A stretch of 64,000 bases of DNA from Bacteroidaceae bacterium (GTDB lineage Bacteria > Bacteroidota > Bacteroidia > Bacteroidales > Bacteroidaceae), in the NCBI GenBank assembly GCA_017455585.1, contig JAFSZU010000028.1, positions 3,220 through 67,219 on the forward strand, given 5' to 3'. The position numbers and the translations under genes were made by a program. The notes below the pieces were generated by a model. The model saw nothing but the letters and a program-made list of their open reading frames with translations. It was not told the DNA's origin and did no database searches. Below are positions 1,934-45,494 of the stretch, piece by piece. Each line of letters begins with the position of its first letter. Within the stretch, counting starts at the first letter, position 1.

Positions 1934-2001
1934 ATTATAAGGTTTTTAGGTTATAAGGTTTTTAGGTTATAAGGTTTATAGGTTATCAGGTTTTTAAGGT
2001 T
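1934..2001. repeat. AT-rich tandem repeat (AGGTTTTTAGGTTATA, ~16 bp x4) overlapping stop of receptor-1
   Basis: attataaggtttttaggttataaggtttttaggttataaggtttataggttatcaggtttttaaggtt. Confidence 0.8.
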
Positions 2002-5000
2002 CCTCGCCGCGGGCTCGTTTCCGTTCGCTCTTGCGCATGGGCTGGCGATTGAGACGCCACACGGCATGGAAGAGGACGTAGCGGGGCGGGACATTGGTGT
2101 ATGTCTCGATGCGGCCTTGGGCGTTGAGGATGTTGGTGGTGCTGCGCAGCTGGCCGAGGATGTCGAAGCCGTCGAGCATCACGACGAGGTTGCCCTTGAA
2201 GAAGGGACGTGCAAGGCGGGCTTTCCACATCCAGTCGGTGGTGTTCATCGAGGCATCGGCATAGCCGCGGCGGGCATAGAGCGTCAGGTCGGTCGAAAGT
2301 TGCAGCTTCCACGGCAGGTTCAGCAGGACGGAGAAGGTGGTCTTGTAGTCGGCCACATGGAAGTCCGTGAAGTCCGTGCGCGGGCTGTGAAGCCACTGCC
2401 ACTTGGGCTCGCAGTCCAGCTTTAGGTTGCCCAGGTCGCCGAGGCTGTACCTGGCAATCAGCAGCGGGCTTAGGGTGGTGGTGCTGACGGTGCTGCGTTG
2501 CAGTTGTGTCGTACCCGTCAGATCTACACTGTGACGGTAGCCAACGGAAGGCACAACGTAGATGCGCAGTCGGCCTCGCTTGTCGAGCGGCAGGTTACCG
2601 ATGCCATAGCCTCCGATGAATTCCCAGTTACCATTGATGCTGTAGGGCTTGTAGGTTCGGACACCTGTCTCGGGGTTGTAAAGCTGGCTCATGACCGTGG
2701 CGTTCTGCGTCAGGACGAAGTCTATGCCGCCCGTAAGCTTTATCTGCTTATTCTTGTAGTTCTTCTGATGATGCACCTGCATGCTGTGGCGGTAGATATT
2801 GTGCAGGTCGGAGTTGCCTTCGGTGATGTTCAGCGGGTCGGTGGCGTCACGGATGTTGACGTAGTTGAGCATCGAGGGGGCGTCGGCCTTCAGGCGATAG
2901 GCGATGAAGAGGGCGTTGCCGTTGTCCCAGCGTCCCTCGGCATAGCTCCAGTCGGTGTCGAGGAGGACGGTGCGGTGCGTGATGAGCGTATCGACCTGTC
3001 CGCGCTGGTAGTGCAATGTGCGGTTGAGCAGACTTATAGGTAGGCGCTGGCTGATGCTCCAACTACCGTTCTTCATCTTGGGGAACCACCAGAGGAAGGG
3101 TCGCAGGGAGTAGTAATGCTCGGTCAGACGGTAGCTGTAGCTGTTGGCGGCGTCCATGGTCCGCTCATACTCGGCCACGGAGGGCAGCACTCCAACATCC
3201 AGTGTGTCCGTGCGCTCCATTCGGTCTAAGAGGAAGAGCGAGGATTCCCGCTGCGTGTTGCGGTATTCGTAGCTGAGGTGGGTTTCCAAGGAGAGGTTGC
3301 GGCGGATGGTCCAATGGTACATGCCCTGTACCCACAACTTGCCATAGCGGTCAGGGTGGTCGCGGAAGTACTGGTCGCCATAAAATGGCGACCCACCTGA
3401 CACTCGCTGGCGGTTGAAGCGGTCGTCGGCTTTCACGTCGTAGCAGGCATCGGTTTCGAATTCGAAGTAGTCGCTGGTGCCGTCCAGCTTGATGGCTGTG
3501 AAGGTCGAGAGGTTGGGATGCAGGGAATAACCGCTCCGCGAACCCTGTTGTTGGTTGGTATTGATGAGGGAGTCGCCGGCATTCCATGCTTGAGACTGGA
3601 AGGACGAACGGTTGTCCCATCGATGATAGTCAAAGCTGGGTCTGATGCGGAGCTGCACCTTCGGGAAGTTATACTGGAACTGGTTCCATGTGCTCACAGA
3701 GAGTGACTTGTCCTCCGCCACCGAGCGGCTATGCTCGCGGGTGTCGCCGCCGGGCAGGTAGTTCACGCGCTCCGTGACGGTTGTCACATCATTCGTCGTG
3801 TGCTCGGCGCGGACATTGCCCTCCAGCTTCCATTTCTTGTCGCGATCCTCAGTGAAATAGTCGATGCCGCCCTGTTGTCGCGTCTGCTGTCCCGGACTCA
3901 CGCCCATCCTGTAGCCACCGCTTTCACCCGGTCGCTCGCCGTCGTTCAGGTTGTTGACATTGAAGTAGGCCGCAAGCCGCGAGTGGTCCGAGAAACGCAT
4001 GGCCAAGAGGCGGGCGAGGTAACGAAGACCCTCTCCCCGCTCCACCTTTAGGGGGAGAGCCTCGATACGCTCTTTTGCTGTGCGCAGCCACTCCTCTCCC
4101 ACACGGGAGGGGTTGGGGGTGGGTCTGCCCATACCTCCTTCCACATTCACCAGCCATCCGATGCTATATTCCCTCTTCAGCTTCACGTCCATCACATACT
4201 GCTTGTCGTTCTCCAACTGCTGTCCGAGGAACTCGCTCTTGTCTCCATACTTGTCATAAATCTCTACCTGCTTCACCGTATAGGCTGGCAGGTTCTCAAG
4301 CATCACGCGGTTGTCACCACGGAAGAAGTCTTTGCCATTGAGCAGCAGGGCCTCCACGCGCTTGCCGTTGACGGTGATTTCGCCACCGTCCTTCAACTCC
4401 ACGCCCGGCAGCTGCTTCACCAGCGCATCGAGCATGGAACCCTCTGCCAACTGGAAGGCATCGGCGTTATAGACCACTGTGTCGCCACGATAGTAGAACA
4501 TCACCTTCGAGGCGGTGACAGTCACTTCACGCATCGTATGACGTACAGTCTTGTGCATCAGGACGGGTGGCAGTTCGCGCACGAACTCCCGTCTGCCCAC
4601 GTTGCTGAGGTTATAATCCACGTAGGTGGTGTCGTGCCCCTCGAAGGATGCCCGCAGGATGTAAGCCTCCTGACGGTGAGGCACTTCGAAATAGAAGTCC
4701 GATGTGTAGCCGCTATGATCCATATTCATCCAAAACGACTTGGCTTCACGTGTACTGAGCACGGTGCTGTCTCGTGTCATCAACGTTACCACAGCCCCTG
4801 GCAGGTCGTTGCGCGTCATGTTGTCTAATACCTTGCCGTGGATGCTCATCATCTCCTTGTCCTGCTTGCGCTGTACAAAAATTTGACGAAGAGCCTTCTT
4901 CACTTTCACCTTCACGGGTAGGCTCTTCGTCAGCCGCTCCACGGCATCAGGAACGTCTTCTTCCGCTACCGACTCCAACGTGACAGCAGCTTCCAATCCC

Positions 5001-5176
5001 AGCAGTTCATCCGTCACGAAAGTGATGGTCCACTCCTCCTGCTGCTCGTTGAGGCGGGCGAGGGCTTGGGAAAGTGAGAGATGACCCTCCCCCGAAAAGG
5101 GAGCGGTTACCTGTGCTGATATGGGGAATAAGGCCACGCACGCGTATATAATAATAAGGTATAGCAGTCGTTTCAT
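1994..5176 (-). CDS. outer-membrane beta-barrel receptor (TonB-dependent-receptor-like, cell-surface-signalling partner of ECF module 1)
   Basis: 1060-aa ORF. Signal peptide MKRLLYLIIIYACVALFPISAQ. N-terminal STN-like segment, then a CarboxypepD_reg-like segment (IHGKVLDNMTRNDLPGAVVTLM). Plug-like VTVTASKVMFYYRGDTVVYNADAFQLAEGSMLDALVKQLPGVEL, followed by a long barrel. It overlaps the anti-sigma gene by 4 bp. Paralogue of 6471-9716. Confidence 0.75.
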   Translation of the reverse strand: MKRLLYLIIIYACVALFPISAQVTAPFSGEGHLSLSQALARLNEQQEEWTITFVTDELLGLEAAVTLESVAEEDVPDAVERLTKSLPVKVKVKKALRQIFVQRKQDKEMMSIHGKVLDNMTRNDLPGAVVTLMTRDSTVLSTREAKSFWMNMDHSGYTSDFYFEVPHRQEAYILRASFEGHDTTYVDYNLSNVGRREFVRELPPVLMHKTVRHTMREVTVTASKVMFYYRGDTVVYNADAFQLAEGSMLDALVKQLPGVELKDGGEITVNGKRVEALLLNGKDFFRGDNRVMLENLPAYTVKQVEIYDKYGDKSEFLGQQLENDKQYVMDVKLKREYSIGWLVNVEGGMGRPTPNPSRVGEEWLRTAKERIEALPLKVERGEGLRYLARLLAMRFSDHSRLAAYFNVNNLNDGERPGESGGYRMGVSPGQQTRQQGGIDYFTEDRDKKWKLEGNVRAEHTTNDVTTVTERVNYLPGGDTREHSRSVAEDKSLSVSTWNQFQYNFPKVQLRIRPSFDYHRWDNRSSFQSQAWNAGDSLINTNQQQGSRSGYSLHPNLSTFTAIKLDGTSDYFEFETDACYDVKADDRFNRQRVSGGSPFYGDQYFRDHPDRYGKLWVQGMYHWTIRRNLSLETHLSYEYRNTQRESSLFLLDRMERTDTLDVGVLPSVAEYERTMDAANSYSYRLTEHYYSLRPFLWWFPKMKNGSWSISQRLPISLLNRTLHYQRGQVDTLITHRTVLLDTDWSYAEGRWDNGNALFIAYRLKADAPSMLNYVNIRDATDPLNITEGNSDLHNIYRHSMQVHHQKNYKNKQIKLTGGIDFVLTQNATVMSQLYNPETGVRTYKPYSINGNWEFIGGYGIGNLPLDKRGRLRIYVVPSVGYRHSVDLTGTTQLQRSTVSTTTLSPLLIARYSLGDLGNLKLDCEPKWQWLHSPRTDFTDFHVADYKTTFSVLLNLPWKLQLSTDLTLYARRGYADASMNTTDWMWKARLARPFFKGNLVVMLDGFDILGQLRSTTNILNAQGRIETYTNVPPRYVLFHAVWRLNRQPMRKSERKRARGEEP
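4026..4126. repeat. GC-rich hairpin element, double-ended copy, inside receptor-1 CDS
   Basis: AGACCCTCTCCCCGCTCCACCTTTAGGGGGAGAG ... TGCGCAGCCACTCCTCTCCCACACGGGAGGGGTTGGGGGTGGGTCT. Inverted AGACCC/GGGTCT termini and two hairpins. Confidence 0.75.
5083..5111. repeat. GC-rich hairpin element (short variant) in receptor-1 N-terminus
   Basis: GACCCTCCCCCGAAAAGGGAGCGGTTACC. Encodes ..APFSGEGH.. just after the signal peptide. Confidence 0.5.
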
Positions 5177-5793
5177 TGCGCGCCTCCTTTCTGCACAAAG
5201 ATGGTATCTCGCAGCTCTGTCAGTTGCAGCCCATCCAGCTCATTGAGGCTTTCGATGAACACTGCCAGGCTGTCCTCTTGGTTCCACTTGGTGTGAATAC
5301 GGAGTCCTTTCAGTTGCTCATTACCGAAGGACACGGCTTTGCCATAATGCTGGCTCACAATCGCCAGCATGGAGTCCAAGCGGACATCGGCAAAAAGGAT
5401 GGGTGTCCCCCGTAGCCCCCCGGCGGGGGGCGCTTGAAGGCTGCCAACCTTTTCATCCTCCGCCGGGGGATTATAGGGGGCCAGGATTTGTATGCTTGCC
5501 CACACCAACCCACCGAGGAAGACGGCAGCGAGGAAGACGGCGGCAATCTTGCGATAGAAGACCCATCCCGCCCTTCGGGCACCTCTCCCGTGATAGAGGG
5601 GAGTGGCTGCGCACAGTTTCTCCCCATTGATGACTTCCTCCTTCACCAGCATCAGGATAGCATGGCGGTCGGTGGCGAGTTCGTCGGTGCAGTCATCGGC
5701 GAGGAGGTAGCTGACGAGGCGGCGCTCTTCATCGGCCGTCGTCTCGCCGCGGAAGAAACGGTCGCGGAGTATCAAGGCATCATTCTCTTTCAT
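5173..5793 (-). CDS. anti-sigma factor (single TM, FecR_C/DUF4974-like periplasmic domain), module 1
   Basis: Lies between the ECF sigma and receptor genes. TM helix IAAVFLAAVFLGGLVWASIQIL. C-terminal FADVRLDSMLAIVSQHYGKAVSF..IHTKWNQEDSLAVFIESLNELDGLQL resembles the FecR C-terminal domain. Confidence 0.65.
   Translation of the reverse strand: MKENDALILRDRFFRGETTADEERRLVSYLLADDCTDELATDRHAILMLVKEEVINGEKLCAATPLYHGRGARRAGWVFYRKIAAVFLAAVFLGGLVWASIQILAPYNPPAEDEKVGSLQAPPAGGLRGTPILFADVRLDSMLAIVSQHYGKAVSFGNEQLKGLRIHTKWNQEDSLAVFIESLNELDGLQLTELRDTIFVQKGGAQ
5559..5616. repeat. GC-rich hairpin element inside anti-sigma-1 CDS
   Basis: AGACCCATCCCGCCCTTCGGGCACCTCTCCCGTGATAGAGGGGAGTGGCTGCGCACAG. Confidence 0.75.
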
Positions 5794-6383: not shown

Positions 6384-6422
6384 AAAAAAACGCCCCGCCA
6401 CGTCTCACGACGCAGCGGGGCG
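6384..6422 (-). terminator. intrinsic terminator after receptor-2 gene
   Basis: Minus strand: CGCCCCGCTGCGTCGTGAGACGTGGCGGGGCG followed by TTTTTTT. Confidence 0.7.
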
Positions 6423-6470
6423 ATGTGCCTATAGGTCTTGATTGTTTACTAACTACTTTATGGAAATCGA

Positions 6471-9400
6471 TTATCTTTTCTTCGGGTTCTTGTTGAAGTG
6501 CCAGACGGCGTGGAGCATGACGTAGTGGGGGAGGGAGCGGTACCAGGTGACGGTGCGGCCCTGGGCATTGATGCTGTAGTCGATGGGCGACAGCTGGTGC
6601 AGGAGGTCGAAGGCCTGGAGACTGAGGATGAACCTGCCCTTTGCCAGGGACTGGCTGAGGGAGGCGTTGACAACGAAGTTGTTTCGGTTGAGGTCGGCTG
6701 TGCCGTAGCCGCGACGGCTGAACATGGTGCCGTCGGCGGCGAGGGTGAGGCCTCCGAACCTGGTGCCCCAGAGGGCGGGTGTGGTGTAGGTGGCTTCGAG
6801 TCCGTACTGGAAGTCGAGGGCGGAAAGGGAAGACCCACCCCCTGCCCCTCCCGTGAGGGAGGGGAGTGGCTGCGCAGAGTGCCGCCAGTTGATTGACCCC
6901 ACAGCGCGGACGTTCAAGGTCTTGCGGTTGTAGCGGATGTTCGCTCCGCTGTTGAGACCGAGGGTATTCACGGTGTTGACACTGCTCTCGTTTTCGCCCT
7001 CCAGCAAGGCGTGGTCCTTGGAATGATTCCAGTCTGCACCTGCGTCGAGATGCCACGTCCAGTAGCGCTTCTCGCCGATGGTGCGGTTGGTGCCGAAGTT
7101 GGCGCGGGCGGCGTAGGCGCCGCTGATGTTCATGGGTTTGTAGGTGCTGATGCCGGTGGCGGGGTCGTAGGTCAGGGACTGTGCGATGTCGCGATGGTGG
7201 TAGTCGAAGGAGGCAGAGAGGTTGTAGGAGTCGTTTCGCGGCCCGGTGCTGTCATAGTATCTGATGTTGAAGGTCGTCTTTGCCGTGGGTTTCAGGTCGG
7301 GGTTGCCCAGCTTGACGATGAGGGGCTGGCTGTCGTCGCGGAAGGTGATGCGGTCCAGCAGGAGGGTGCGCTCCTGGCTGAAGCCGACATTGAAGTTGAG
7401 GTCTCGCCGCCCGCCTTTCCACACGTTGCGATAGCGGAACGTGGCTTTAGGCAGGAACACGGTCTGGCGTGCCAGCGTGTCCAGCGTGCCGCGGTGGTAG
7501 TGGAGGCGTTCGCCGGACAGCGGCGTGCCCACCTCCAGCGCAAACCGCTGGTAGCTGATTTTGGCGTGGAACTGCGGATGCACATAGTAGGCGTTCTTGT
7601 AGAACATGAGACCCACGTCGTTGCTCCAGTCGCGGTCGCGGCTGTCATAGGAGTTCGCGGCATCGGTGATGGCGGTCAGGGCGTCAAGCTGCGAGGGGAG
7701 GAGGGGGGACAGGGAGGTGTCCTCGGCGGGAAAACCGCCGAGCACCAACGCATCGGGCTGTGAAGGACTGCCGGGCACCAACGGGGAGGTACCTTCGGGA
7801 GCGCTCGGCTTTGCCGCTTCGCTTTGCGAAGAACCCTCGGGAACGGTAACGGGGTGGTAGAGGTAGTCGCGGTTGTGCTGGCGGCGGCTGAAGAACCCGT
7901 CGCTGATGCCTATGCGCAGGGCGTTGGGCAGTTCCCATTGGTATCCCATGCGGCCGAGAAACCATGTGCTGCGGTTGAAGAGCGTGTTGGAGTTGTGGGT
8001 GGCTCCCCCATTCTCCTCCGAGGGGGTGGCCGTTCTTGTTTCATACCTTGTCGCACGCTCGCTCTCGTCGTTGCTGTGTTCAAAGTGGAAGAAGTATTCT
8101 AAATGCTTCTTGTCCTTGCCCACATTGAAGGATCCCTGAACATCGAATATAGCATTCCACGCCCGCCCCTCGCTGACGCCCACGGTGCGCTGGCTGACGG
8201 TGAGGCTGTCGCTCCACTGGTCGAAGGCGGAGTTGAACGAGCCGTCGCGACTGGCGTAGCTGTAACGGGCCAGGGAGTAGAGATAGAAGGGCTTGGACAG
8301 CGACAGCGTGTTGTTCAGGCTGAGCCTGCGGTTGCCCGCGCGGTTGAAGGACTCGGTGACGGACGTGGGTGTGCAGCCGTCGATGAACTGTTCGCGGCGC
8401 TGCTGCACGGTCTGCTCGTCGGTCGAAGAGGTGTAATCAGCGCTGAATGTCTCCTTCAGTTTGTCGCCCTTGGTCTGGTAGTTGAGTTCTCCGGCCACGC
8501 TGCGCGTCGTCAGCAGCGATCGCGGCTGGCGCGCCGGGTTCCACTGGTCGGACTGCCCGATATGGCGACCCTCGTTGACGTTATTCGCGTTGGCCAGGAG
8601 CGTGAAGCGCAGACGGTCGGTGAAGCCGAGGAGGAAGCCACGGGCAAGCCACCGCTCCTGAGTGCCTCCTGCCGCTTCTACATTGCCGATGTAGCCTTGG
8701 CTGTATTCGTCCTTCAGGTTCACGTCCATCACATAGCGGCGCGGCTCCACGTCGTAGCCCAGTGCCACGCTCTTGTCGGTCTGCTTCTCATAGACCTTCA
8801 GGTTCTTCACGGTGTAGTACGGCAGGTTCTCCAACAGCACCTTCTTGTTGCCGCCGAAGAACGAGCGGGAGCCGAGCAGCAGCTCATCCACCTTGCGCCC
8901 GTTGACGAATATCTCGCCGTCGACGTTCATGGTCACGCCCGGCAGCTGGCGGATGAGGTCGTCGAGCATGGAGCCGTCGGGCAGCCGGAAGGCCGTGGCG
9001 TCGTAGATGAGCGTGTCGCCGCGGTAGAACATCTTGATCTTGGTGGCCGTGACGGTCACCTCACGCATGGTCTTGGTCGTACCGCGGCGCATCTTCAATG
9101 TGGGCACTTCCACACCGTCCTCAGGCAAGGGACGGGGGATGGTCACCCGTTGCCACACGTCGTCGTAGCCCTCCTGGCTGGCGCGGACGAGGTACTGCGA
9201 CTCGGCGGCACTCACTTCGGCGTTGAACTGTGCCCGAACCATCTTCATACCGCTTCCGTAGAAGACAACGATTTGTGCGGAATCCACCACCACGCTGCTG
9301 TCCGCGCGCAGGATGGAAACCTTTGCATAGGGCAGCGGCATCTCCAGGAAACCGTCCTCCACACAGCCTGAGAGGTGCACCGTCTTGCCTGTGAGGTCTC

Positions 9401-9716
9401 GTTCAGGCTTGTACTGTACAAAGATCTGCTTGCCCCTCGTCTTCACCTTCACGGGCTGTCCCTTGCATACCCGCGCCACCGCCTTGTCGGCTCTGAGATT
9501 CTTGGACGGCCGTGCCGAGACGCGCAGGTGTTCCAGATTGTTGTGGATGAAGTGGATGGCGTATTCTGTCTGCGCTGTTGCCAAAGAGTCAAGGGCAGTG
9601 GCGAGGGAAGACTCTTCCCCCGCCCTCCCTTGTAGGGAGGGAGAGGTTACTTGTGCGGATAGGGGAAATAACGCTGTCGCAAGGACATATATAATAAGGT
9701 ATAACCGTTTCATCAC
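6471..9716 (-). CDS. outer-membrane beta-barrel receptor (TonB-dependent-receptor-like), module 2
   Basis: 1081-aa paralogue of 1994-5176 with the same layout: signal peptide MMKRLYLIIYVLATALFPLSAQ and plug-like VTVTATKIKMFYRGDTLIYDATAFRLPDGSMLDDLIRQLPGVTM. Confidence 0.75.
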   Translation of the reverse strand: MMKRLYLIIYVLATALFPLSAQVTSPSLQGRAGEESSLATALDSLATAQTEYAIHFIHNNLEHLRVSARPSKNLRADKAVARVCKGQPVKVKTRGKQIFVQYKPERDLTGKTVHLSGCVEDGFLEMPLPYAKVSILRADSSVVVDSAQIVVFYGSGMKMVRAQFNAEVSAAESQYLVRASQEGYDDVWQRVTIPRPLPEDGVEVPTLKMRRGTTKTMREVTVTATKIKMFYRGDTLIYDATAFRLPDGSMLDDLIRQLPGVTMNVDGEIFVNGRKVDELLLGSRSFFGGNKKVLLENLPYYTVKNLKVYEKQTDKSVALGYDVEPRRYVMDVNLKDEYSQGYIGNVEAAGGTQERWLARGFLLGFTDRLRFTLLANANNVNEGRHIGQSDQWNPARQPRSLLTTRSVAGELNYQTKGDKLKETFSADYTSSTDEQTVQQRREQFIDGCTPTSVTESFNRAGNRRLSLNNTLSLSKPFYLYSLARYSYASRDGSFNSAFDQWSDSLTVSQRTVGVSEGRAWNAIFDVQGSFNVGKDKKHLEYFFHFEHSNDESERATRYETRTATPSEENGGATHNSNTLFNRSTWFLGRMGYQWELPNALRIGISDGFFSRRQHNRDYLYHPVTVPEGSSQSEAAKPSAPEGTSPLVPGSPSQPDALVLGGFPAEDTSLSPLLPSQLDALTAITDAANSYDSRDRDWSNDVGLMFYKNAYYVHPQFHAKISYQRFALEVGTPLSGERLHYHRGTLDTLARQTVFLPKATFRYRNVWKGGRRDLNFNVGFSQERTLLLDRITFRDDSQPLIVKLGNPDLKPTAKTTFNIRYYDSTGPRNDSYNLSASFDYHHRDIAQSLTYDPATGISTYKPMNISGAYAARANFGTNRTIGEKRYWTWHLDAGADWNHSKDHALLEGENESSVNTVNTLGLNSGANIRYNRKTLNVRAVGSINWRHSAQPLPSLTGGAGGGSSLSALDFQYGLEATYTTPALWGTRFGGLTLAADGTMFSRRGYGTADLNRNNFVVNASLSQSLAKGRFILSLQAFDLLHQLSPIDYSINAQGRTVTWYRSLPHYVMLHAVWHFNKNPKKR
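6831..6878. repeat. GC-rich hairpin element inside receptor-2 CDS
   Basis: AGACCCACCCCCTGCCCCTCCCGTGAGGGAGGGGAGTGGCTGCGCAG. This is a near-consensus copy. Confidence 0.8.
7719..7750. repeat. CGG hairpin type 1 in receptor-2 CDS
   Basis: GTCCTCGGCGGGAAAACCGCCGAGCACCAACG. Confidence 0.65.
7828..7854. repeat. PEG box (encodes PVTVPEGS) in receptor-2 CDS
   Basis: GAAGAACCCTCGGGAACGGTAACGGGG. Confidence 0.7.
9609..9650. repeat. GC-rich hairpin element in receptor-2 N-terminus
   Basis: AGACTCTTCCCCCGCCCTCCCTTGTAGGGAGGGAGAGGTTAC. Confidence 0.65.
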
Positions 9717-9737
9717 TCAATCAATTTTAGAAGGTGA

Positions 9738-9775
9738 CTACTCCTTCCCTTTGAGGGAAGGTGAGGGGAGGGTCT
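9738..9775. repeat. GC-rich hairpin element forming the last codons and stop of anti-sigma-2
   Basis: CTACTCCTTCCCTTTGAGGGAAGGTGAGGGGAGGGTCT. The CTA at 9738-9740 is the TAG stop on the minus strand. Confidence 0.65.
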
Positions 9776-10319
9776 TAACAAACACAGTGTCTCTTTCTTC
9801 CGTCACCTGTAAACCGTCGAACTCATTGAGCATGGTGATGAACGTCGCCAGAGAATCCTCGCGGTCCCACGTGATGGTGAAGCGCAGGTTGCGCGATGCC
9901 TCGTCGAGGAACTGCACCTGCTGCTTGTAGTGCGCCGCCACCACAGAGAGAATGCTGTCCAAGCGGACGTCGGAGAAACGGACGGGCGAAGCCCCCCGTA
10001 GCCCCCCGGTGGGGGGCGTTTGAAGACTGCCAACCTTTTCATCCCCCACTGGGGGATTATAAGGGGTCAGGATTTGTATGCTTGCCCACGCCAGCGCGCC
10101 GAGGAAGACGGCGGCGATGAGGATGGCAGCCATGCGGCGGTAACGATTGAGTCTAAGGAGGAACGGATTTTCGGATGCAGTCCCCCTCTCTTGCGTCCTC
10201 AGTTCCAGAGACTTCTCCATCAGTTGATCTACAAAGTCCTCGGAGTGTGGTGACGATGGCGGTGTGATGCGGCGGAGGGCATCACGCAGGTCGGAATGAG
10301 TGTTGTTCATTGTTCTCAA
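9738..10319 (-). CDS. anti-sigma factor (single TM, FecR_C-like), module 2
   Basis: Paralogue of 5173-5793 (AAILIAAVFLGALAWASIQIL; FSDVRLDSILSVVAAHYKQQVQF). The start could be the ATG at 10310 (MNNTHSDL). It overlaps the 3' end of the sigma gene. Confidence 0.6.
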   Translation of the reverse strand: MRTMNNTHSDLRDALRRITPPSSPHSEDFVDQLMEKSLELRTQERGTASENPFLLRLNRYRRMAAILIAAVFLGALAWASIQILTPYNPPVGDEKVGSLQTPPTGGLRGASPVRFSDVRLDSILSVVAAHYKQQVQFLDEASRNLRFTITWDREDSLATFITMLNEFDGLQVTEERDTVFVKTLPSPSLKGKE

Positions 10320-10914
10320 TGTTTAGGATAAGTGAGTAGAGTTTGCGGCGCAGACGATACAGGCGGCTGTAGAGGGCATCTGCTTCAGTGCCGAGGATGT
10401 AGGCTATGTCAGCCACGCCACGTTCCTCGGCATACCGCATGTAGAGCAGGTTGCGCTCCTCGTCCGTCAGGGTGGCGAGGGCTCGTGTCAGGCTCTCCAC
10501 GCGGTCGGGGCGTCCTGTGGAGAAAGCGGCATCCAGCTCCGCCTCCGATACGTCGGCCAGTTCAATGGTGTGTCTGGCAACAGCTGGCGCATCTATGGGC
10601 AACGTCGGCACTTGTGGATGCAACCGCAAGTGATTCAGGGCTGTGTTATAGGCGATGCGACTGAGCCACGTCGGCAGCGAGGCACGCGCGGGGTCATAGC
10701 TGTCGAGTCCCTGAAATACCTTCAGCAAAGTATCCTGCAATACCTCCTCTGCCTCGGCGGCATGGTGTATCATGCCGCGGATCAGCGTCAGCAGTTGCTG
10801 CCCGTAGGCATCGACCAGCGTCTGGCAGGCACCGCGGTCACCAGCCCTGGCGGCACGTATCATCTGTATGTCATCTGTCTGTGTCATTCTACTCATATAT
10901 ACAACCTGCATCAT
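10282..10914 (-). CDS. ECF (sigma-70 family) RNA polymerase sigma factor, module 2
   Basis: Region 2 AEEVLQDTLLKVFQGLDSYD..WLSRIAYNTALNHLR. Region 4 ERGVADIAYILGTEADALYSRLYRLRRKL. The exact start is uncertain because there are several N-terminal Met codons. Confidence 0.8.
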   Translation of the reverse strand: MMQVVYMSRMTQTDDIQMIRAARAGDRGACQTLVDAYGQQLLTLIRGMIHHAAEAEEVLQDTLLKVFQGLDSYDPARASLPTWLSRIAYNTALNHLRLHPQVPTLPIDAPAVARHTIELADVSEAELDAAFSTGRPDRVESLTRALATLTDEERNLLYMRYAEERGVADIAYILGTEADALYSRLYRLRRKLYSLILNIENNEQHSFRPA

Positions 10915-12324: not shown

Positions 12325-15216
12325 TTATTCTTTAGGAAGGGTTTTCCACGTGAGTCCGGGTTGCTCCTTGTCTTGCGGGATGAAGATGCTGAGGATGAGG
12401 GCAACGAGGACGCTGACGAGCATGGAGACGAAACCGAAGAGGAGGAAGTTGGCCTGGGTGCAGAAGTTCATATAGAAGACGGTGGCTGTGCCGCAGAGGA
12501 AACCGATGAGGGCGGCACGGGAACCGATGCGTGGGAAGAAGATGCCCATGAGGAAGAGGCCGCCGATGGCACCGCTGAGGAGACCGAGGATGGTGTTGAA
12601 GTAGTCGAGGAGCGACTGGATGTCCACGGTGGCCATCAACCAGGCGATGGCCATGCCGATGAGACCGGCACAGATACCGGCGATGCGGGCGGTGCGGACG
12701 GAGGAGGTGGAACCCTCGGGAACAGTGACAGGACGGCGGAGGGTTGTCCACTTCGACCATAAATCTACGGTAAAGGCGGTGGAGATAGAGTTGATGTTGG
12801 AGGCGATGGTGGACATCGTGGCGGCGAAGACGGCGGCGATGAGGAGACCGGCGAGTCCTGCGGGCAACTGGCTCATCATGAAGAAGGGGAAGATGGCATC
12901 GCCCTTGGCCATCGTGATGTCCAGCTCGGCGGGATGGGTTTTGAAGAAGGTGTAGAGACCTGTGCCGATGGTGAAGAAGGCGATGGTGACGATAACGGAC
13001 ATGAGGCCGTTGGTCAGGATGCCGCGGGCGGCACTCTTCTCGTCGGAGGTGGTCAGGTAGCGCTGGATGACGGTCTGGTCGCTGGTGTAGGAGATAAGGT
13101 TATTGGCCAGACCACCGAGGATGACCACCCACCACGTGGCATTGACGAAGTCGAAGGGATTTTCCGAATTGAAAAGGAAAAGGCGGAACTTGTCGTGATC
13201 GGTGGCTATCTGCCAGAAGTCCGAAGCACCATTGTCGCCTGTATTGACAATGAGATAGACGGCAGCCAAGATGGCACCGCCCACAAGGATAATTCCCTGA
13301 ATGACATCGCCCCAGACGACCGCTTCCACACCACCCATCGTACAGTAAAGGATGGTGATGAGAGCCATCAAGGCTATACAAATATAGATATTGATACCCG
13401 TAACAGCTGTCATCGCCAAGGACGGAAGGAAGAGCACGAGGGCTGTGCGCGCCACCATGAAGACGATGAAGAGGATGCTGGCCATGAGGCGCGTGGCGCT
13501 GTTGAAGCGGCGTTCCAGATATTCATAGGCGGTGGTCACGTTCAGGCGACGGAAGAAGGGCAAATAATATTTGATGACGGGGAAGGACACCAGCAGGATG
13601 CAGATCTGCATGGGGTAGTAAGTCCAGTCGGTGGCGTAGGCCTTGGCGGGGATACTCATATAGGTAATGGCAGAAAGCATGGTGGCGAAGATGCTGATGC
13701 CAGCCGCCCACCAGGGGATGCGGCCGCCGCCCTTGAAGAAGTCTTCAGAAGAATTCGAGGCGCGCTTCATGAAGTAGTAGCCCAGATAGACCATGCCTAA
13801 CAGGTAGAGGATGAGCACTGTCCAGTTCAACCAGCCGAAGTGGGCGGTGTAGGTGATATCCACGCGGGTGACATCGGAAGAGCGGACACCGGGTTTCTCC
13901 TCGCCGTTGATAACGAGGAGGGAGACGGCGGACGAACCGCCGCCCACAGAGCCCAAGGCAGACGATGGCATGGGCACCAGGCCAGCACCGGCACGGGCGA
14001 TGAGGGGGCTGTCAAAGACCTCGGCCCACGAATCGGTGACGGTATGATAGACAAGAATGCTGCGGCGGAACTGGTACCAGGCGGGTTGCTGGGTCATGTA
14101 ATAGTGCATTTCCTCGCGGAGGTTGGCCAGACGCTCTGCGGTCTGGGTGGTGTCTGAGAGGAGGGCTCCGCGCTGGAGAGCGCCTTCAAAGATGCGCTTG
14201 TTCACACCGCCGAAGCAGAGGATATGGGCGGCACCGGAGGGGATGGCAGAGGCACCGACCAAAGACCCCTCATCTCCCCGTAAGGGGAGACTTTCGTTTC
14301 CACTCGTCTTCACTGCGCAGCCACTCCCATCCCTTACGGGAGGAGTTTGGGGGTGGGTCTTTATCAGACTTGTCGCCAACCAATCTCCTTTCCTTGGGTC
14401 ATAATAAACACCGTTGGTGACAGCTTTCCCATAGCGAGGGTCATAGCCGCCGAGGAGGTAGAAGTTGCTGCCGATAGCGCCTTTCTGCACGGCTGCGGCA
14501 GGTTGCACGCGGGCAGGGCCTGGCATATCGGGCAGCTCTTCCCAGGCAGCTCCTGTCTGTGTGTCGAACCAGGCAGAGGGTAGCGGCCATTTCAGGCGGA
14601 AGGCCTTGTGGTTGGCTACTCCATTGTGCAGACCACCAGCGATATAGATAAAGCCATCACCGTAGGCGGCAGCGAAGTTGTCGAGAGAAACAGGCAATGA
14701 TGGCAAATCCCGGCTAATGGCCTCGCCACTCGTTCCAAGGGTCAGGAGAACTGCAAAGTCCTCGCTCTTCTTACCGTCTGCCGTGCCGCCCAAACAGACA
14801 ACACCCTCGGACGTGGTGACGCTGGCACCGTAGGCTAACGCACAAGGCAGGGAGCCGGCACGCCACCAATAAGTGTCAGAATCTGAAAGGCTTATTGCAT
14901 AAATGTCTGTGTAGAAGACCTTTTGGCCACCCTCAGATGCTGGGATGTCTGGGAAGTTGCAGCCACCAGCCACCAAAACACGGTTGAAAGGCATCAAGAA
15001 ATCTTTTGGAACAAACCCAGCAAAGGAACCACTCACGCCCTGACCGCCAAATGCAGAGAGAGCCGGGACGGGAGTGAAGGAAGCGTTGTTGAAGCGGTGG
15101 GAAGACCTGCCCCCCTGCCCCTCCCTTGTAGGGAGAGGAGTAGAATCATTTGCAAATGAGAAACTTGATAGGAGAATCGCCAAAGCGAAAAGAGACATGA
15201 TTTTTTTCATAATCAC
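12325..15216 (-). CDS. fusion protein: N-terminal Kelch-type cyclically-permuted mutarotase (NanM-like) + C-terminal sodium:solute symporter (SSS family)
   Basis: 963 aa. Residues ~1-450 carry signal-peptide and Kelch-like blocks (VLVAGGCNFPD.., FIYIAGG, FYLLGGY, ILCFGGV). Residues ~455-963 are polytopic SSS-like (FFKGGGRIPWWAAGISIFATMLSAITYMSIPAKAY). Confidence 0.75.
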   Translation of the reverse strand: MIMKKIMSLFALAILLSSFSFANDSTPLPTREGQGGRSSHRFNNASFTPVPALSAFGGQGVSGSFAGFVPKDFLMPFNRVLVAGGCNFPDIPASEGGQKVFYTDIYAISLSDSDTYWWRAGSLPCALAYGASVTTSEGVVCLGGTADGKKSEDFAVLLTLGTSGEAISRDLPSLPVSLDNFAAAYGDGFIYIAGGLHNGVANHKAFRLKWPLPSAWFDTQTGAAWEELPDMPGPARVQPAAAVQKGAIGSNFYLLGGYDPRYGKAVTNGVYYDPRKGDWLATSLIKTHPQTPPVRDGSGCAVKTSGNESLPLRGDEGSLVGASAIPSGAAHILCFGGVNKRIFEGALQRGALLSDTTQTAERLANLREEMHYYMTQQPAWYQFRRSILVYHTVTDSWAEVFDSPLIARAGAGLVPMPSSALGSVGGGSSAVSLLVINGEEKPGVRSSDVTRVDITYTAHFGWLNWTVLILYLLGMVYLGYYFMKRASNSSEDFFKGGGRIPWWAAGISIFATMLSAITYMSIPAKAYATDWTYYPMQICILLVSFPVIKYYLPFFRRLNVTTAYEYLERRFNSATRLMASILFIVFMVARTALVLFLPSLAMTAVTGINIYICIALMALITILYCTMGGVEAVVWGDVIQGIILVGGAILAAVYLIVNTGDNGASDFWQIATDHDKFRLFLFNSENPFDFVNATWWVVILGGLANNLISYTSDQTVIQRYLTTSDEKSAARGILTNGLMSVIVTIAFFTIGTGLYTFFKTHPAELDITMAKGDAIFPFFMMSQLPAGLAGLLIAAVFAATMSTIASNINSISTAFTVDLWSKWTTLRRPVTVPEGSTSSVRTARIAGICAGLIGMAIAWLMATVDIQSLLDYFNTILGLLSGAIGGLFLMGIFFPRIGSRAALIGFLCGTATVFYMNFCTQANFLLFGFVSMLVSVLVALILSIFIPQDKEQPGLTWKTLPKE
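12709..12732. repeat. PEG box in SSS-transporter CDS
   Basis: GGAACCCTCGGGAACAGTGACAGG. Encodes RPVTVPEGST. Confidence 0.7.
14263..14360. repeat. GC-rich hairpin element, double-ended copy, inside NanM::SSS CDS
   Basis: AGACCCCTCATCTCCCCGTAAGGGGAGA ... CTGCGCAGCCACTCCCATCCCTTACGGGAGGAGTTTGGGGGTGGGTCT. Confidence 0.8.
15103..15143. repeat. GC-rich hairpin element in NanM::SSS N-terminus
   Basis: AGACCTGCCCCCCTGCCCCTCCCTTGTAGGGAGAGGAGTAG. Confidence 0.7.
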
Positions 15217-15295: not shown

Positions 15296-16243
15296 TTACT
15301 TATTGCAGTGGTTGAAGAAGTCGATGGCTTCGAGCTCGGCTTTCAGGCGGGCTTCCTCTTCGGGAGTGATGTTCTGAAAGGGTGTGCGGTTGGGACCCAA
15401 GTCGAGGCCGATGAGCTTCATGATGCGCTTGCCGCCGACAATGTTGCCGCGGAAGTGGCAAATGACATCGATGACGTCCTGCGCGTAGTTCTGCAAGGAA
15501 CGGGCCTTCTCCAGATCACCTTCTTCCCAGGCCTTGATGATGCCCGTGAGGCAGCGTCCGTTGTAGTTGGTGGTGCCGCCGATGCCGCCCTGTGCGCCGC
15601 CCATGGCAAGGCACGGAAGGATGGTCTCGTCCTGACCGTGCAGCATGTCGAACTTACCGTCCTTATATCGGCGGCAGCGGTTGTACTCGTAGAGGCTCTC
15701 AAACGTATATTTGATGCCGGCAAAGTTGGGAATGCGGCCATCCACGGCTTGCAAGAAGTCATACATGGAGAGGAAGGCACCGTTGAACGCTGGGATGTGG
15801 TAGAAATAGAAGGGAAGCTTGGGTGCTCCACAAGCGATTTCCTCGCAGTACTTCACCAGTTCCTCGATGCGTCCCACCTTGGGGAAGGGAGGTGCCATGG
15901 CGCCGATGCCGAAGGCTCCGATGGCCTGTGCGTGCTCGGCGAGGTTGCGGCTGCTGCGGACGCAGGTGCTGCCCACGTGAACGATGACCTTGAAGCCCTC
16001 GGGAGAACCTTCGGGAATAGTAACGGGAAGTTTTTTCACGGCATCCATCCACGCCTCGGCGATGGCCTTGCGCTCGTCCTCGGTGAGCATATAGCCCTCT
16101 CCGCTGGAGCCGTTGATAAACACACCTTTAAGACCATTGCGCTGAAGCAATGCTGCATACTGTGGGATAACAGACAGGTTGATGCTGCCGTCGGCGTGCA
16201 TCGGGGTAAATGGGGCGTCAATGAGACCTTTGATTTTTTCCAT
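15296..16243 (-). CDS. nanA: N-acetylneuraminate lyase (DHDPS/NAL family)
   Basis: GLIDAPFTPMHADGSINL..GVFINGSSGEGYMLTEDERKAI..VIVHVGS..YFYHIPAFNG is typical of the NAL family. The adjacent AGE and transporter genes support the call. Confidence 0.85.
   Translation of the reverse strand: MEKIKGLIDAPFTPMHADGSINLSVIPQYAALLQRNGLKGVFINGSSGEGYMLTEDERKAIAEAWMDAVKKLPVTIPEGSPEGFKVIVHVGSTCVRSSRNLAEHAQAIGAFGIGAMAPPFPKVGRIEELVKYCEEIACGAPKLPFYFYHIPAFNGAFLSMYDFLQAVDGRIPNFAGIKYTFESLYEYNRCRRYKDGKFDMLHGQDETILPCLAMGGAQGGIGGTTNYNGRCLTGIIKAWEEGDLEKARSLQNYAQDVIDVICHFRGNIVGGKRIMKLIGLDLGPNRTPFQNITPEEEARLKAELEAIDFFNHCNK
15995..16027. repeat. PEG box (double) in nanA CDS
   Basis: GCCCTCGGGAGAACCTTCGGGAATAGTAACGGG. 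Encodes LPVTIPEGSPEG. Confidence 0.7.
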
Positions 16244-20530: not shown

Positions 20531-20548
20531 ACACAATTATCTTATATA

Positions 20549-20673
20549 AACCACAGATTACACAGATTACACGGATTATAGTCCTTTCCAATATAGAGAA
20601 TCTGTGAAATTCAGATAACAGTTACACAGATTAGAAGCAGTAAAGAATCTGTTTAATCTGTGCAATCTGTGGT
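20549..20673. mobile_element. MITE-like element with CACAGATT-repeat terminal inverted repeats (short form)
   Basis: Left AACCACAGATTACACAGATTACACGGATTA. Right GAATCTGTTTAATCTGTGCAATCTGTGGTT. Sits in the kdsA-kdsD spacer. Confidence 0.75.
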
Positions 20674-20695
20674 TCTTGTTAGAAACTAATTAAGT

Positions 20696-23175: not shown

Positions 23176-23285
23176 ACGTCCGCACGAAAGCATTATCACG
23201 TGCGGACGTATAAGCAAAAACGTGCGCACGAAAAGGCAGGAACGTGCGCACGATATTTTCATCACGGGTGCACTACCCGTTTTCA
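23176..23285. repeat. 22-bp phased tandem array (5 units) abutting stop codon of porin-like gene
   Basis: ACGTSCGNACG cores start at 23176, 23198, 23220, 23242 and 23264, an exact 22-bp spacing. Confidence 0.8.
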
Positions 23286-26188: not shown

Positions 26189-26949
26189 TGTTCTGTTGTG
26201 TTTTTGAGGTCGCCAATGTGGTAGTAATCAAACATGTGCTCTTCCATCCAGGCATTGGCCTCGATGGGTGTCTTCTTCCAGCCGGAGGAACAGGTGGAGA
26301 CAATCTCCACGAGGCTGGAACCGCGACGGTTGACACTGTTCTCGAAGGCTTGACGGATGGCGCGCTTGGCCTTGCGGATGGCGGCCACGCTGTGCACGCT
26401 CTGACGGGTGACATAGCATGTGCCTTCCAACTGTGCTGCCAGTTCTGTGATTTTCAGGGGATATCCGTGCAGGTCTGCCTGGCGACCGTAGGGGCAGGTG
26501 GCTGTCTTCATGCCCATGAGCGTGGTGGGAGCCATCTGTCCGCCTGTCATGCCGTAGATGGCATTGTTGATGAATATGATGGCGATGTTCTCGCCGCGGT
26601 TGAGGGCATGGATGGTCTCTGCGGTGCCGATACAGGCCAGATCGCCGTCGCCCTGATAGGTGAAGACGAGATGCTCTGGCCAGAGGCGCTTGATGGCAGA
26701 GGCGATGGCGGGCGCGCGTCCGTGGGCAGCTTCCTGCCAGTCGATGTCGATATACTTGTAGGCAAAGACGGCACAGCCTACGGGTGAGACACCTACGGCT
26801 TTCTCCGTGATGCCCATCTCCTCGATGACCTCGGCGATGAGCTTGTGGACCACGCCGTGGGAGCAGCCGGGGCAGTAGTGCATGTGTTCGTCATTGAGGA
26901 GCGCGGGCTTCTGATAGACGATATTCTCTGGTGAGATGATATTTTCCAT
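26185..26949 (-). CDS. korB: 2-oxoglutarate:ferredoxin oxidoreductase, beta (TPP-binding) subunit
   Basis: Re-started at ATG 26949 (MENIISPENIVYQKP..HYCPGCSHG..GDGD..). The track start at 26967 is a TTG inside the TTGTCAAC repeat array. Confidence 0.85.
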   Translation of the reverse strand: MENIISPENIVYQKPALLNDEHMHYCPGCSHGVVHKLIAEVIEEMGITEKAVGVSPVGCAVFAYKYIDIDWQEAAHGRAPAIASAIKRLWPEHLVFTYQGDGDLACIGTAETIHALNRGENIAIIFINNAIYGMTGGQMAPTTLMGMKTATCPYGRQADLHGYPLKITELAAQLEGTCYVTRQSVHSVAAIRKAKRAIRQAFENSVNRRGSSLVEIVSTCSSGWKKTPIEANAWMEEHMFDYYHIGDLKNTTEQ

Positions 26950-26960
26950 AATCTTAATAC

Positions 26961-27057
26961 TTGTCAACTTGTCAACTTGTCAACTTGTCAACTTGTCAAC
27001 TTGTTAACTTGTCAACTTGTCAACTCGTTAACTTGTCAACTGGTTAACTTGTCAACT
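26961..27057. repeat. perfect/near-perfect 8-bp tandem array TTGTCAAC x12 inside kor operon
   Basis: ttgtcaac repeated about 12 times with a few point variants (ttgttaac, tcgttaac, tggttaac). It lies 11 bp upstream of the korB ATG. Confidence 0.9.
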
Positions 27058-27059
27058 AT

Positions 27060-27233
27060 TTAAAACATAAAGCGGACGAAGAACTCCACCACCTTGACAA
27101 CCATGCCGATGCCAATGACAATCAGCCCAATGATGTGGTGGGCTGGGATGGCAAAGTAGAGCACCATGCCGATGATGGCGAGGAGCAGGAAGATGGTGTT
27201 GAGGGTGTTGCGGAGTTCGTCGCGGTTCTGCAT
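27060..27233 (-). CDS. small hydrophobic protein (57 aa) embedded in kor operon
   Basis: Hand-translated: MQNRDELRNTLNTIFLLLAIIGMVLYFAIPAHHIIGLIVIGIGMVVKVVEFFVRFMF*. Two predicted TM helices. It is below the track's 60-aa cut-off and fills the korA-korB gap. Confidence 0.35.
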   Translation of the reverse strand: MQNRDELRNTLNTIFLLLAIIGMVLYFAIPAHHIIGLIVIGIGMVVKVVEFFVRFMF

Positions 27234-31066: not shown

Positions 31067-31074
31067 AATACTCT

Positions 31075-31207
31075 AATTCACAATGCACAATTCATAATTC
31101 ATAATTGGCTGCGCATGGTTCGCATGTACCGCCAGTCTGTTTATAAATCATGAGTTGTCATTGTCTGGGGGAAATAATTGTGAATTATGAATTATCAATT
31201 ATGAATT
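31075..31207. repeat. inverted pair of 32-bp AATTCATAATT-type modules flanking 69-bp core, between ABC ATPase and permease genes
   Basis: Left aattcacaatgcacaattcataattcataatt. Right aattgtgaattatgaattatcaattatgaatt. Confidence 0.75.
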
Positions 31208-31211
31208 GACA

Positions 31212-31967: not shown

Positions 31968-32012
31968 TGGGTTTTGGTTTTATTCCTGGAGGGAATTAAT
32001 TGGGGATTGATT

Positions 32013-32038
32013 ATCCCGGCGGGTGAACCGCCGGACAC
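32013..32038. repeat. CGG hairpin type 2, intergenic within efflux operon
   Basis: ATCCCGGCGGGTGAACCGCCGGACAC. Confidence 0.6.
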
Positions 32039-32041
32039 TAA

Positions 32042-36340: not shown

Positions 36341-36501
36341 AGACCCACTCCCAACCCCTCCCGTGAGGGGAGGGGAGAGTTTGCAGTTAATATAGAAAAA
36401 TGAACTAAAAGATTATTAACCCTATAATATGACCCAGTAACTTCTCAACTCTCAAGCGCCAGTCGCGCCCCTCCCTCACGGGAGGGGTTGGGGGTGGGTC
36501 T
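36341..36501. mobile_element. MITE-like intergenic element: two inverted GC-rich hairpin modules flanking ~80 bp AT-rich core
   Basis: Left module AGACCCACTCCCAACCCCTCCCGTGAGGGGAGGGGAGAGTTTGCAG (36341-36386). Right module GCGCCCCTCCCTCACGGGAGGGGTTGGGGGTGGGTCT (36465-36501). It starts 1 nt after the stop of 34859-36340 and ends 8 nt before ATG 36509. Confidence 0.75.
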
Positions 36502-36508
36502 TTATCTT

Positions 36509-39859: not shown

Positions 39860-39882
39860 TGTTAGTTAAGGGTTGGGCGGGT

Positions 39883-39915
39883 GGCCTCGGTGGGGAAACC
39901 ACCGAGCACCAACGG
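39883..39915. repeat. CGG hairpin type 1, intergenic (yidC / peptidase)
   Basis: GGCCTCGGTGGGGAAACCACCGAGCACCAACGG. Confidence 0.65.
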
Positions 39916-39918
39916 TGG

Positions 39919-45483: not shown

Positions 45484-45494
45484 ACCCCTGCTTG

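Follow-up and report, generated by a model that had tools for sequence, protein, structure and literature searches.

A receptor gene with an extended loop

The 64,000-nt stretch of DNA analyzed here (the window; about 57% G+C) derives from an uncultured rumen bacterium that GenBank labels Bacteroidaceae or Prevotellaceae. It contains a gene, receptor 2, for a TonB-dependent-transporter-like outer-membrane β-barrel protein, in which a slot held by three residues in most homologs is occupied by a 49-residue filler containing short repeats of three families, two of which have further copies elsewhere in the window (Table 1). The open reading frame (ORF) is intact; it has 1081 codons when read from GTG and 1080 if the ATG at 9713 is taken as the start. 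The product has a signal peptide and a single Pfam match, OMP_b-brl_3 (PF14905), with no match to Plug or TonB_dep_Rec, and the plug region was modeled with low confidence. The top 50 Foldseek matches to the structural model were almost all TonB-dependent transporters (probability 1.0, TM-score about 0.2 to 0.3). Genes for an extracytoplasmic function (ECF) sigma factor and a FecR-like anti-sigma factor lie upstream, and a paralogous sigma/anti-sigma/receptor trio, including receptor 1 (1994-5176), adjoins the gene (26-34% identity). In the species collection, the nearest genomes for receptor 2 were metagenome-assembled genomes (MAGs) from goat, buffalo, and reindeer rumen, with protein identities of 70-79%; tblastn with the neighboring window genes detected no synteny around the receptor loci.

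Table 1. Positions of the genes, filler layers and repeat copies discussed in the text (window coordinates)
Feature	Position	Strand or location	Description and basis
Receptor 2	6471-9716	minus	TonB-dependent-transporter-like outer-membrane β-barrel ORF; translation, Pfam PF14905, Foldseek
FecR-like anti-sigma gene	9738-10319	upstream of receptor 2	Pfam FecR_C
ECF sigma gene	10282-10914	upstream of receptor 2	Pfam Sigma70_r2/r4
Filler	7704-7850	minus	147 nt, 49 aa (V623-P671, 1081-codon numbering) in place of D-T-L; homolog alignment
Native LLPSQLDALTAI	7668-7703	minus	Nearly invariant in homologs; helix 673-683 predicted in model
Older filler layer (TSPLVPGSPSQPDALVLGGFPAEDTSLSP)	7704-7790	minus	Homologous to the sister clade's 27-aa filler; DNA and protein comparison with L030, L006, L001
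Hairpin-1	7716-7752	minus	Stem 7722-7729 / 7735-7742, loop 7730-7734, conserved tail CACCAACG(C); encodes ALVLGGFPAEDT
Partial second hairpin-1 copy (CCGTTGGTGCCCGGC; compare GCGTTGGTGCTCGGC 33 nt downstream)	7770-7784	minus	15 of first 18 nt identical; no right arm
Hairpin-1 twin	39880-39914	minus	31/35 (89%) identical; begins 5 nt past the YidC stop, in frame with YidC
PEG unit, first part	7830-7853	minus	CCC GTT ACC GTT CCC GAG GGT TCT (PVTVPEGS); first codon is the native Pro
PEG unit, second part	7791-7799	minus	CCC GAA GGT (PEG); comparison with intact units
PEG unit in YidC	41329-41361	minus	Intact, PVTVPEGSPEG; site of 0-7 tandem units in orthologs
PEG unit in N-acetylneuraminate lyase (NanA)	15995-16027	minus	Intact, PVTIPEGSPEG; absent from homologs of ≤93% identity
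PEG unit in NanM-sodium:solute symporter fusion	12709-12732	minus	PVTVPEGS
Element B	7801-7834	minus	GTT-CTTCGC-AAA-GCGAAG-CGGC-AAA-GCCG-AGCG, two hairpins; local BLAST, nhmmer, stem covariation
Family 2 palindromic repeat	4025-4138, 5581-5616, 6828-6875, 9606-9647, 14303-14363, 36332-36384, 36445-36504, 38336-38372		Core CCCCTCCC-GTGA-GGGAGGGG, tail AAGACCCAC

The slot was defined from an alignment of 120 receptor homologs and a scan of 23 genomic loci. Its ancestral form reads ...RDYLYHP-DTL-LLPSQ(L/I)DAL..., with D-T-L only in more than 90 of the 120 homologs and HP-DTL-LLPSQ in 17 of the 23 loci. In receptor 2, the net gain over the ancestral three residues is 46 aa; PSAPEGTSPLVPGSPSQPDALVLGGFPAEDTSLSPLLPSQLDALTAITDAANSYDSR is an example of a peptide that spans the filler. 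An initial annotation of the window had described an extra loop of ~165 bp and 55 aa at this place. The peptide it quoted is correct according to the ORF translation, receptor 1 does have the short form ..DTL.. when the paralogs are compared, and the homolog alignment bears out an insertion; the size, however, has to be reduced to 147 nt, because LLPSQLDALTAI, the final 12 residues of the bracketed loop, is native. The ancestral D-T-L (window 7842-7850, compared with, e.g., 11939-11947 in L008) is replaced by V-T-V in the window. D-T-L fits the general O-glycosylation sequon of Bacteroidetes, D-[ST]-[AILVMT], which V-T-V has lost.

A metagenome-assembled contig that was joined chimerically at repeats could produce such a segment, and in the reindeer assembly Reindeer_1_mag_5 a contig break does lie near the site: the contig with the closest ortholog (L030, 79% identity) ends about 100 nt past the filler, and another (L031) resumes at residue 685, which suggests that repeats at the slot break short-read assemblies. 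Three other assemblies of the window's species (L043 to L045, forming with the window a set of 99.4-99.8% nucleotide identity) nevertheless carry the same filler in an intact frame, and they come from different samples and pipelines (JGI, ENA). Each has at most one single nucleotide polymorphism (SNP) in or at the edge of the filler. One, 7737 C>A in a single assembly, lies inside the filler, is synonymous and breaks a hairpin stem; the other, in another assembly, lies just 3' of the filler, in the first native Leu codon. Since the same filler is found in four independent conspecific assemblies, we conclude that it is fixed in the population, and an assembly artifact can practically be dismissed.

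An AlphaFold2 model of receptor 2, built on 50 homologs, had a mean predicted local distance difference test score (pLDDT) of 63, with most barrel strands at 80-95. Residues 618-687, between the modeled strands 599-617 and 688-711, scored below 50. The C-terminal strand must end in the periplasm; in a backward count that started from this strand, long connections (27, 9, 15, 8, 6, 28, (2), and 70 residues) alternated with short ones (2, 8, 2, 4, 7, 4, 6, and 3). The filler falls on the long-connection parity, and the other low-confidence stretches of the C-terminal half of the barrel lie on the same side. The low-confidence residues 950-960 are the remnant of an element of another repeat family, family 2, described below. 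We infer from the model that the filler slot is a disordered extracellular loop, tentatively L4, between strands 7 and 8 as numbered from the C terminus. The permissive barrel loop proposed in the initial annotation is in agreement with this model-based, extracellular parity, and also with the different fillers found at the site in L004/L005, in L001 and in two other clades.

Repeat units within the filler

In its intact form, the PEG unit reads CCC GTT ACN GTT CCC GAG GGT TCT CCC GAG GGT (PVTVPEGSPEG), as seen in NanA (whose true gene is 15296-16243, minus strand), in YidC and at locus L094. The window holds four copies of the unit, all inside ORFs and in the same frame, whereas none is expected in shuffled sequence; the box recognized earlier in receptor 2 thus has three further copies that chance does not predict. 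At one site in the periplasmic domain of YidC, 36 of 120 homologs carry 1 to 7 tandem units (0 units in 84 homologs, 1 in 23, 2 in 3, 3 in 9, and 7 in 1), and the DNA of L289 consists there of three perfect 24-nt units. Among 120 receptor homologs the unit is present in that of the window only, and among 120 NanA homologs in the window and its closest relatives only, the NanA insert appearing as a 10-residue gap against solved lyase structures. Judged by these sequences, the PEG unit is a coding minisatellite unit and not a hairpin-type element. Signal peptidase I and a 2Fe-2S subunit natively contain the PVTVPEGS motif as well. A search of metagenomes with a back-translated PEG pattern returned mostly noise; among the matches listed, L094 alone was relevant.

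Because the intact units in NanA, YidC, and L094 are uninterrupted, the single PEG unit of receptor 2 must be split, after TCT, by a different sequence, element B. The 30 nt that intact units lack are 7800-7829 or equally 7802-7831, as a CT dinucleotide blurs the border by 2 nt, and element B overlaps the GGTTCT of the PEG unit by 5 nt. What had been taken for a second PEG-like stretch is really the 3' end of element B plus the 9 nt that complete the same PEG unit.

Element B has the general form GTT-CTTNN(loop)NNAAG-CGGCAAAGCCG-AGCG and a length of 30-36 nt. Local BLAST located it in loci of other species, and an nhmmer profile built from other Prevotellaceae genomes gave a single match in the window (E = 7.6e-10). 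When the species genomes were scanned with its 18-nt core, at least 120 matches were obtained, compared with about 17 that we estimate by chance over the whole collection; more than 100 of those listed came from genomes of Prevotella, Prevotellaceae, or Bacteroidaceae, among them Xylanibacter brevis ATCC 19188. The fourth stem pair (8-16) covaries (GC in 21 copies, CG in 11, UA in 11); the copies counted were chosen for having a stem, and the unbiased figure is 91%, i.e., the 110 of 121 copies in which stem P2 (the first stem, closed by CTT/AAG) is perfect. Elsewhere, about one third of the copies are found within long open frames, where they occupy several frames and both orientations. Rfam gave no match at the element B sites in 18 other loci, nothing at the gathering threshold over the whole window and nothing relevant at E ≤ 5 over 6400-9800. 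A 15-mer of the element occurred in no searchable paper, and no description of REP-like repeats in Prevotella was found in the literature searched. On this evidence, element B is the third repeat family of the filler, widespread in Prevotellaceae genomes and apparently undescribed. A general outer stem, or three-way-junction RNA, around the element was considered and dropped, since it was seen in 16 copies against 9 in a shifted control.

In Prevotellaceae (loci L167-L286), element B often lies inside 8-nt tandem arrays that are alike on both sides (e.g., AACATTGA in L170 and GAAGATT in L216). It also occurs inside the loop of another palindrome (e.g., L189, L215, and L243), as if repeats were preferred landing sites. 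The Prevotella MAG contig L215 further contains two matches to the Acido-Lenti-1 RNA motif (RF01687; 5942-5987 and 6206-6251, 43 and 37 bits), close to its element B copy and a tRNA.

The third component of the filler, hairpin-1, is GC-rich, with an 8-bp stem, a 5-nt loop and a folding energy of -19.6 kcal/mol. The hairpin CTCGGCGGGAAAACCGCCGAGCACCAACG of receptor 2 (7722-7750) corresponds to 39886-39914 in its near-identical twin. This twin had been reported as intergenic; the likeness is confirmed, and two of the differences form a compensatory C>T/G>A stem pair, but the copy is not simply intergenic, since it starts 5 nt after the YidC stop and lies in the YidC frame. In the window, 2 strict and 6 loose matches were found versus 0 expected in shuffled sequence, and 7 copies in total were considered, of which 5 lie inside ORFs. 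The looser relatives are in the genes for the N-acetylglucosamine (GlcNAc) 2-epimerase, the NanM-symporter, YidC and a phospholipase D (PLD)-family protein, and directly after the stop of an HlyD-family gene. Stems of the types CGGCGG/CCGCCG, CGGTGG/CCACCG, and CGTCGG/CCGACG represent compensatory changes, and folding energies range from -15 to -20 kcal/mol across the copies. An identical 30-mer is present in an unrelated proline-rich ORF of another species (L038), which was also the single match to a strict 29-nt pattern across 185,579 species genomes. A loose pattern, applied to about 2 Mb of other loci, matched only L038, the conspecific contigs and the copy at the orthologous site in L001/L002. 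The copies at 39880-39918 and 32009-32044 begin 3-5 nt past the stops of YidC and the HlyD-family gene, respectively, and when read through the stop they continue in the frame used inside ORFs (PPLVLGGFPTE... and LVSGGSPAG...).

These recurrences bear on whether the filler might have grown by local slippage or low-complexity expansion alone, with its likeness to other loci reflecting shared composition and codon usage. Such growth is suggested by a 13-nt tandem duplication inside the segment, by the partial duplicate of the 5' part of the hairpin at 33-nt spacing, by the SAPIN tandem repeats that fill the slot in L001 and by the variable number of tandem PEG copies in YidC. The apparent 13-nt duplication, however, is simply the two hairpins of element B, whose profile match is given above, and sequences of 22-35 nt from the segment recur exactly or almost exactly at unlinked loci and in other species, where shuffled sequences predict none. 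We therefore consider slippage alone very improbable.

The stems could also point to a role of the hairpins in the mRNA, such as a translation pause for co-translational targeting, mRNA protection or protein binding, with the peptide as a by-product. Stem changes in hairpin-1 and element B are compensatory, all hairpin-1 copies are oriented with transcription (that of the plus-strand gene included), two of them stand directly past stop codons like REP-type mRNA stabilizers, and the fold of the 171-nt region surpasses that of shuffled sequence (z = -3.1). Such a role is nonetheless difficult to reconcile with the stem-breaking SNP in one conspecific strain, with the sister clade, in which the hairpin has decayed while the filler was retained, with the occurrence of element B in both orientations and several frames inside ORFs, and with the absence of a matching Rfam family, and we regard it as improbable.

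Order of events and weighing of explanations

In a neighbor-joining tree of the receptors, based on gap-free columns, the empty-site ortholog P0008 (MAG RGIG8060) falls outside a clade whose members all have a filled slot. The commonest filler in that clade is TSAPGRLPSSPSPSIALGGSPAEEEPP or a near variant (27 aa), and it aligns codon by codon with TSPLVPGSPSQPDALVLGGFPAEDTSLSP, the C-terminal 29 aa of the window filler. The hairpin at the orthologous slot is intact in L001, slightly decayed in L030 and decayed in L006. As the sister clade thus holds partly decayed hairpin copies at the same site, the hairpin-bearing layer is the founding insertion. In contrast to this older layer, the N-terminal 20 aa (VTVPEGSSQSEAAKPSAPEG) are present in the window species only; they are encoded by a younger, 60-nt PEG-B-PEG piece (7791-7850) placed exactly between the native His-Pro and the older layer. 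The slot of L004/L005 holds a different palindromic element, of family 2 (AGACCCACCCCCGACCCCTCCCGTGAGGGAGGGG... with an inverted partner), that of L001 a SAPIN tandem-repeat filler, and two more distant clades have independent, unrelated fillers of 11-12 aa at the same point. The serial insertion suggested in the initial annotation is consistent with the empty outgroup, the shared older layer and the window-only residues.

Other genes of the window contain the same kinds of inserts. Compared with a sister species (L039; NanA 95% identical), the window lineage gained a 12-aa hairpin-1 insert in the GlcNAc 2-epimerase as well as 8-aa hairpin-1 and 30-aa family-2 inserts in the NanM-symporter, and the PEG unit of NanA has two extra residues in the window; L039 has its own family-2-like insert at the N terminus of the epimerase. 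Family 2 is in frame inside ORFs in 6 of 8 copies (receptor 1, FecR-like 1, receptor 2 twice, the NanM-symporter, and an S9 peptidase), and in receptor 1 the complete 114-nt element constitutes a 38-aa insert. [quoted passage not shown] Family 2 also follows the YidC stop codon in L287-L289. With the same repeat families in frame in NanA, YidC, the GlcNAc 2-epimerase, the NanM-symporter, the PLD protein and the S9 peptidase, the phenomenon appears to be genome-wide.

Taken together, we consider it likely that the loop was built stepwise from short dispersed repeats, which were tolerated in a loop of the TonB-dependent-transporter-like barrel that is exposed at the surface and structurally free; we propose that they were tolerated because they are in frame, free of stops and placed in such a loop. 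Comparison of the orthologs shows that D-T-L was first replaced by a hairpin-1 filler of about 27 aa (..LGGFPAE..), after the split from the P0008/RGIG8060 lineage. It also shows that the window lineage then added 60 nt, one PVTVPEGS-PEG unit interrupted by 30-34 nt of element B. In a third step, the composite may have formed in place, with B entering PEG, or may have been copied ready-made from a YidC-type locus via junction microhomology. The product would be a disordered, Pro/Ser/Glu/Gly-rich 46-aa extension of an extracellular loop, and most likely neutral or nearly so for transport.

Several observations weigh against this explanation or parts of it. First, the PEG-B composite is also present in YidC of two related species (contigs L287, L288, and L290) with identical junctions: PEG is split at the same nucleotide by an element B variant (..GCG TCC CAA GGG CCG AGC GCT..), and 43 of 45 flanking positions are identical to those of the receptor. 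L290 belongs to the same MAG as the empty-site receptor, and the YidC of the window itself has an intact unit. Nesting, as the initial annotation had it, is thus correct in so far as PEG is split after TCT by 30 nt of element B, but it need not have arisen in place, since the composite is shared with YidC of relatives and may have arrived ready-made. Second, all 7 hairpin-1 copies share one orientation relative to the gene and one frame (..GG[F/S][P/S]A..), including the two copies just past stop codons and that in the plus-strand gene; none of the six frames of hairpin-1 contains a stop, so a stop-codon filter cannot explain the bias. Third, 9 of 10 variable sites among the PEG copies are synonymous third positions, although the hosts are cytoplasmic, inner-membrane and outer-membrane proteins. 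The frame bias and the synonymous divergence point to a peptide-level or transcription-linked constraint, which a neutral 'junk' model does not predict. Fourth, no transposase was found among the Pfam-scanned ORFs of the window, nor by Pfam hits on the conspecific contig L043 for window positions 5.3-26.2 kb, and the four conspecific strains showed no filled/empty polymorphism by which mobility would be demonstrated. Finally, repeat copy numbers were derived from 64 kb, the mean pLDDT of the model is only 63 and the orientation of the loop is based on strand parity.

As for the composite, a search for the PEG-B junction pattern in the 185,579 species genomes found no further locus beyond the YidC of one genome, which weakens the idea that B recurrently targets PEG and favors copying of a ready-made composite. 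The two junctions share microhomology, CA-N-CCC-G on the 5' side (native H-P-D-T-L aligned with Q-P-V-T-V of YidC) and TCC on the 3' side. Transfer of the composite between genes as a unit, rather than by two independent insertions of B, is therefore modestly favored by the sequence comparison.

The constraint on the PEG peptide also raises the question of whether the loop is an adaptive, selected surface feature, for which the repeats were raw material and which could serve against phage or bacteriocins, in shielding from host or protozoa, or in altered ligand capture. Between species the slot measures anything from 3 to 76 aa, yet its flanks hardly change, three clades independently gained fillers at exactly the same point, and the filler is fixed and intact in four strains, with the hairpin-stem SNP being synonymous. 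However, the same repeats occur in cytoplasmic and inner-membrane housekeeping proteins, where surface display offers no reason for them, and the four strains show no within-species diversity, whereas loops engaged in arms races usually vary. We consider an adaptive loop unlikely, and prefer stepwise growth from tolerated repeats.

A broader reading of element B can be offered only tentatively, and we think it rather doubtful. According to this reading, Prevotellaceae would have in element B a structured mobile element that is very small, still active and moved by a mobilizing enzyme. It would prefer to land in other repeats, such as the loops of palindromes, tandem arrays of 8-nt units and the PEG minisatellite, and would enter both coding and intergenic DNA; together with hairpin-1 and family 2, it would continue to supply envelope and housekeeping proteins of a dominant gut and rumen genus with new peptide loops. 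The bias of hairpin-1 in orientation and frame, and the fact that PEG units diverge at synonymous sites only, would then mean that insertion or copying is coupled to transcription or translation.

Relation to known systems and further repeats of the window

Judged by analogy, the closest known phenomenon is the Rickettsia palindromic element (RPE) and, for the elements themselves, mosaics of the repetitive extragenic palindromic (REP) and bacterial interspersed mosaic element (BIME) type. As far as described in the review PMC10969869, RPEs (Ogata et al. 2000 Science 290:347) are dispersed palindromes that lie in frame in unrelated housekeeping genes, are translated and occupy fold-compatible sites; copies are ~100-150 bp long, share one reading frame and are absent from orthologs. 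Measured by that account, the repeats of receptor 2 are likewise in frame, repeated as families and absent from orthologs, and the inserts in the epimerase, the NanM-symporter, and NanA are similar in kind. By the same account, an RPE is a single element, whereas units of 24-36 nt from three families are combined or nested in one slot here; the host is a member of the rumen Bacteroidota and not an obligate intracellular alphaproteobacterium, and one component, PEG, is no palindrome but a coding minisatellite.

REP and BIME sequences of Proteobacteria are extragenic by definition and tied to a RAYT transposase gene (PMC2817692). Hairpin-1 and element B resemble them in being imperfect palindromes, GC-rich and 20-40 nt long, with stem changes that compensate one another, and further likenesses are copies right past stop codons and mosaics of units. 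In contrast, ORFs contain every one of the 4 PEG copies, 5 of the 7 hairpin-1 copies and the sole element B of the window, which are thus not extragenic; no GTAG-type 5' tetranucleotide was present, and no RAYT gene was seen in the 64-kb window. Intragenic MITEs (ERIC, Nezha, and pneumococcal BOX) are non-autonomous and occasionally fuse in frame with ORFs (PMC10969869); prokaryotic MITEs measure 50-800 bp and are abundant in Bacteroidota (PMC11602168, a census, and the review PMC10969869). The repeats studied here share with them the in-frame position in host ORFs and the non-autonomous type, and the family-2 element alone looks like a MITE, but hairpin-1 (~35 nt) and element B (30-36 nt) are too short, have no terminal inverted repeats besides the hairpin itself and allow no target site duplication to be defined.

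The 24-nt PVTVPEGS unit resembles coding variable number tandem repeats in its 0-7 in-frame tandem copies at one YidC site and its slippage-type variation; unlike ordinary repeats of this class, it occurs as single units in three unrelated genes of one genome. In hypervariable loops of TonB-dependent transporters, e.g., FetA or TbpA of Neisseria, variation arises by point mutation and by allelic recombination within the species. Receptor 2 is comparable in that the barrel is conserved and variation, both in length and in sequence, clusters in a single surface loop, but here the variation consists of imported genome-wide repeats and is fixed in the species.

In-frame 'selfish DNA in genes' is textbook knowledge for Rickettsia, where it counts as an oddity of reduced intracellular genomes; the present case would extend it to free-living, abundant gut and rumen Bacteroidota. 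Here, repeats have entered not only a surface receptor but also essential proteins (YidC, NanA), with several families accumulating at one loop, so that receptor 2 may provide a concrete and datable example of the birth of a new surface loop in protein evolution. For annotation, such repeats may account for many odd inserts rich in Pro/Ser/Gly/Glu in Prevotella proteins and for contigs that break within genes. Element B, a by-product of this analysis that appears to be new, is a conserved two-hairpin element, widespread in Prevotellaceae, without a match in Rfam or the literature searched.

The window contains further repeats and one unusual ORF. Intergenic 8-nt tandem arrays lie at 26935-27078, 1935-1996, 20540-20683, 31074-31208, 53264-53478, and 61125-61158, with units of ACTTGTCA (~13 times), TTATAAGG/TTTTTAGG, and the ACAGATTA and AATTCATA types, and some of them form long inverted pairs between distant loci. 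Intergenic 22-nt tandem repeats (ACGTGCGGTCGTGATGCCAATT and variants) are present at 45345-45497, 56752-56838, and 23197-23271, and could be arrays of binding sites. In the ORF at 58691-59641, ECF sigma regions 2 and 4 are joined to a C-terminal TonB_C domain, which would be an unusual fusion if the ORF is real.

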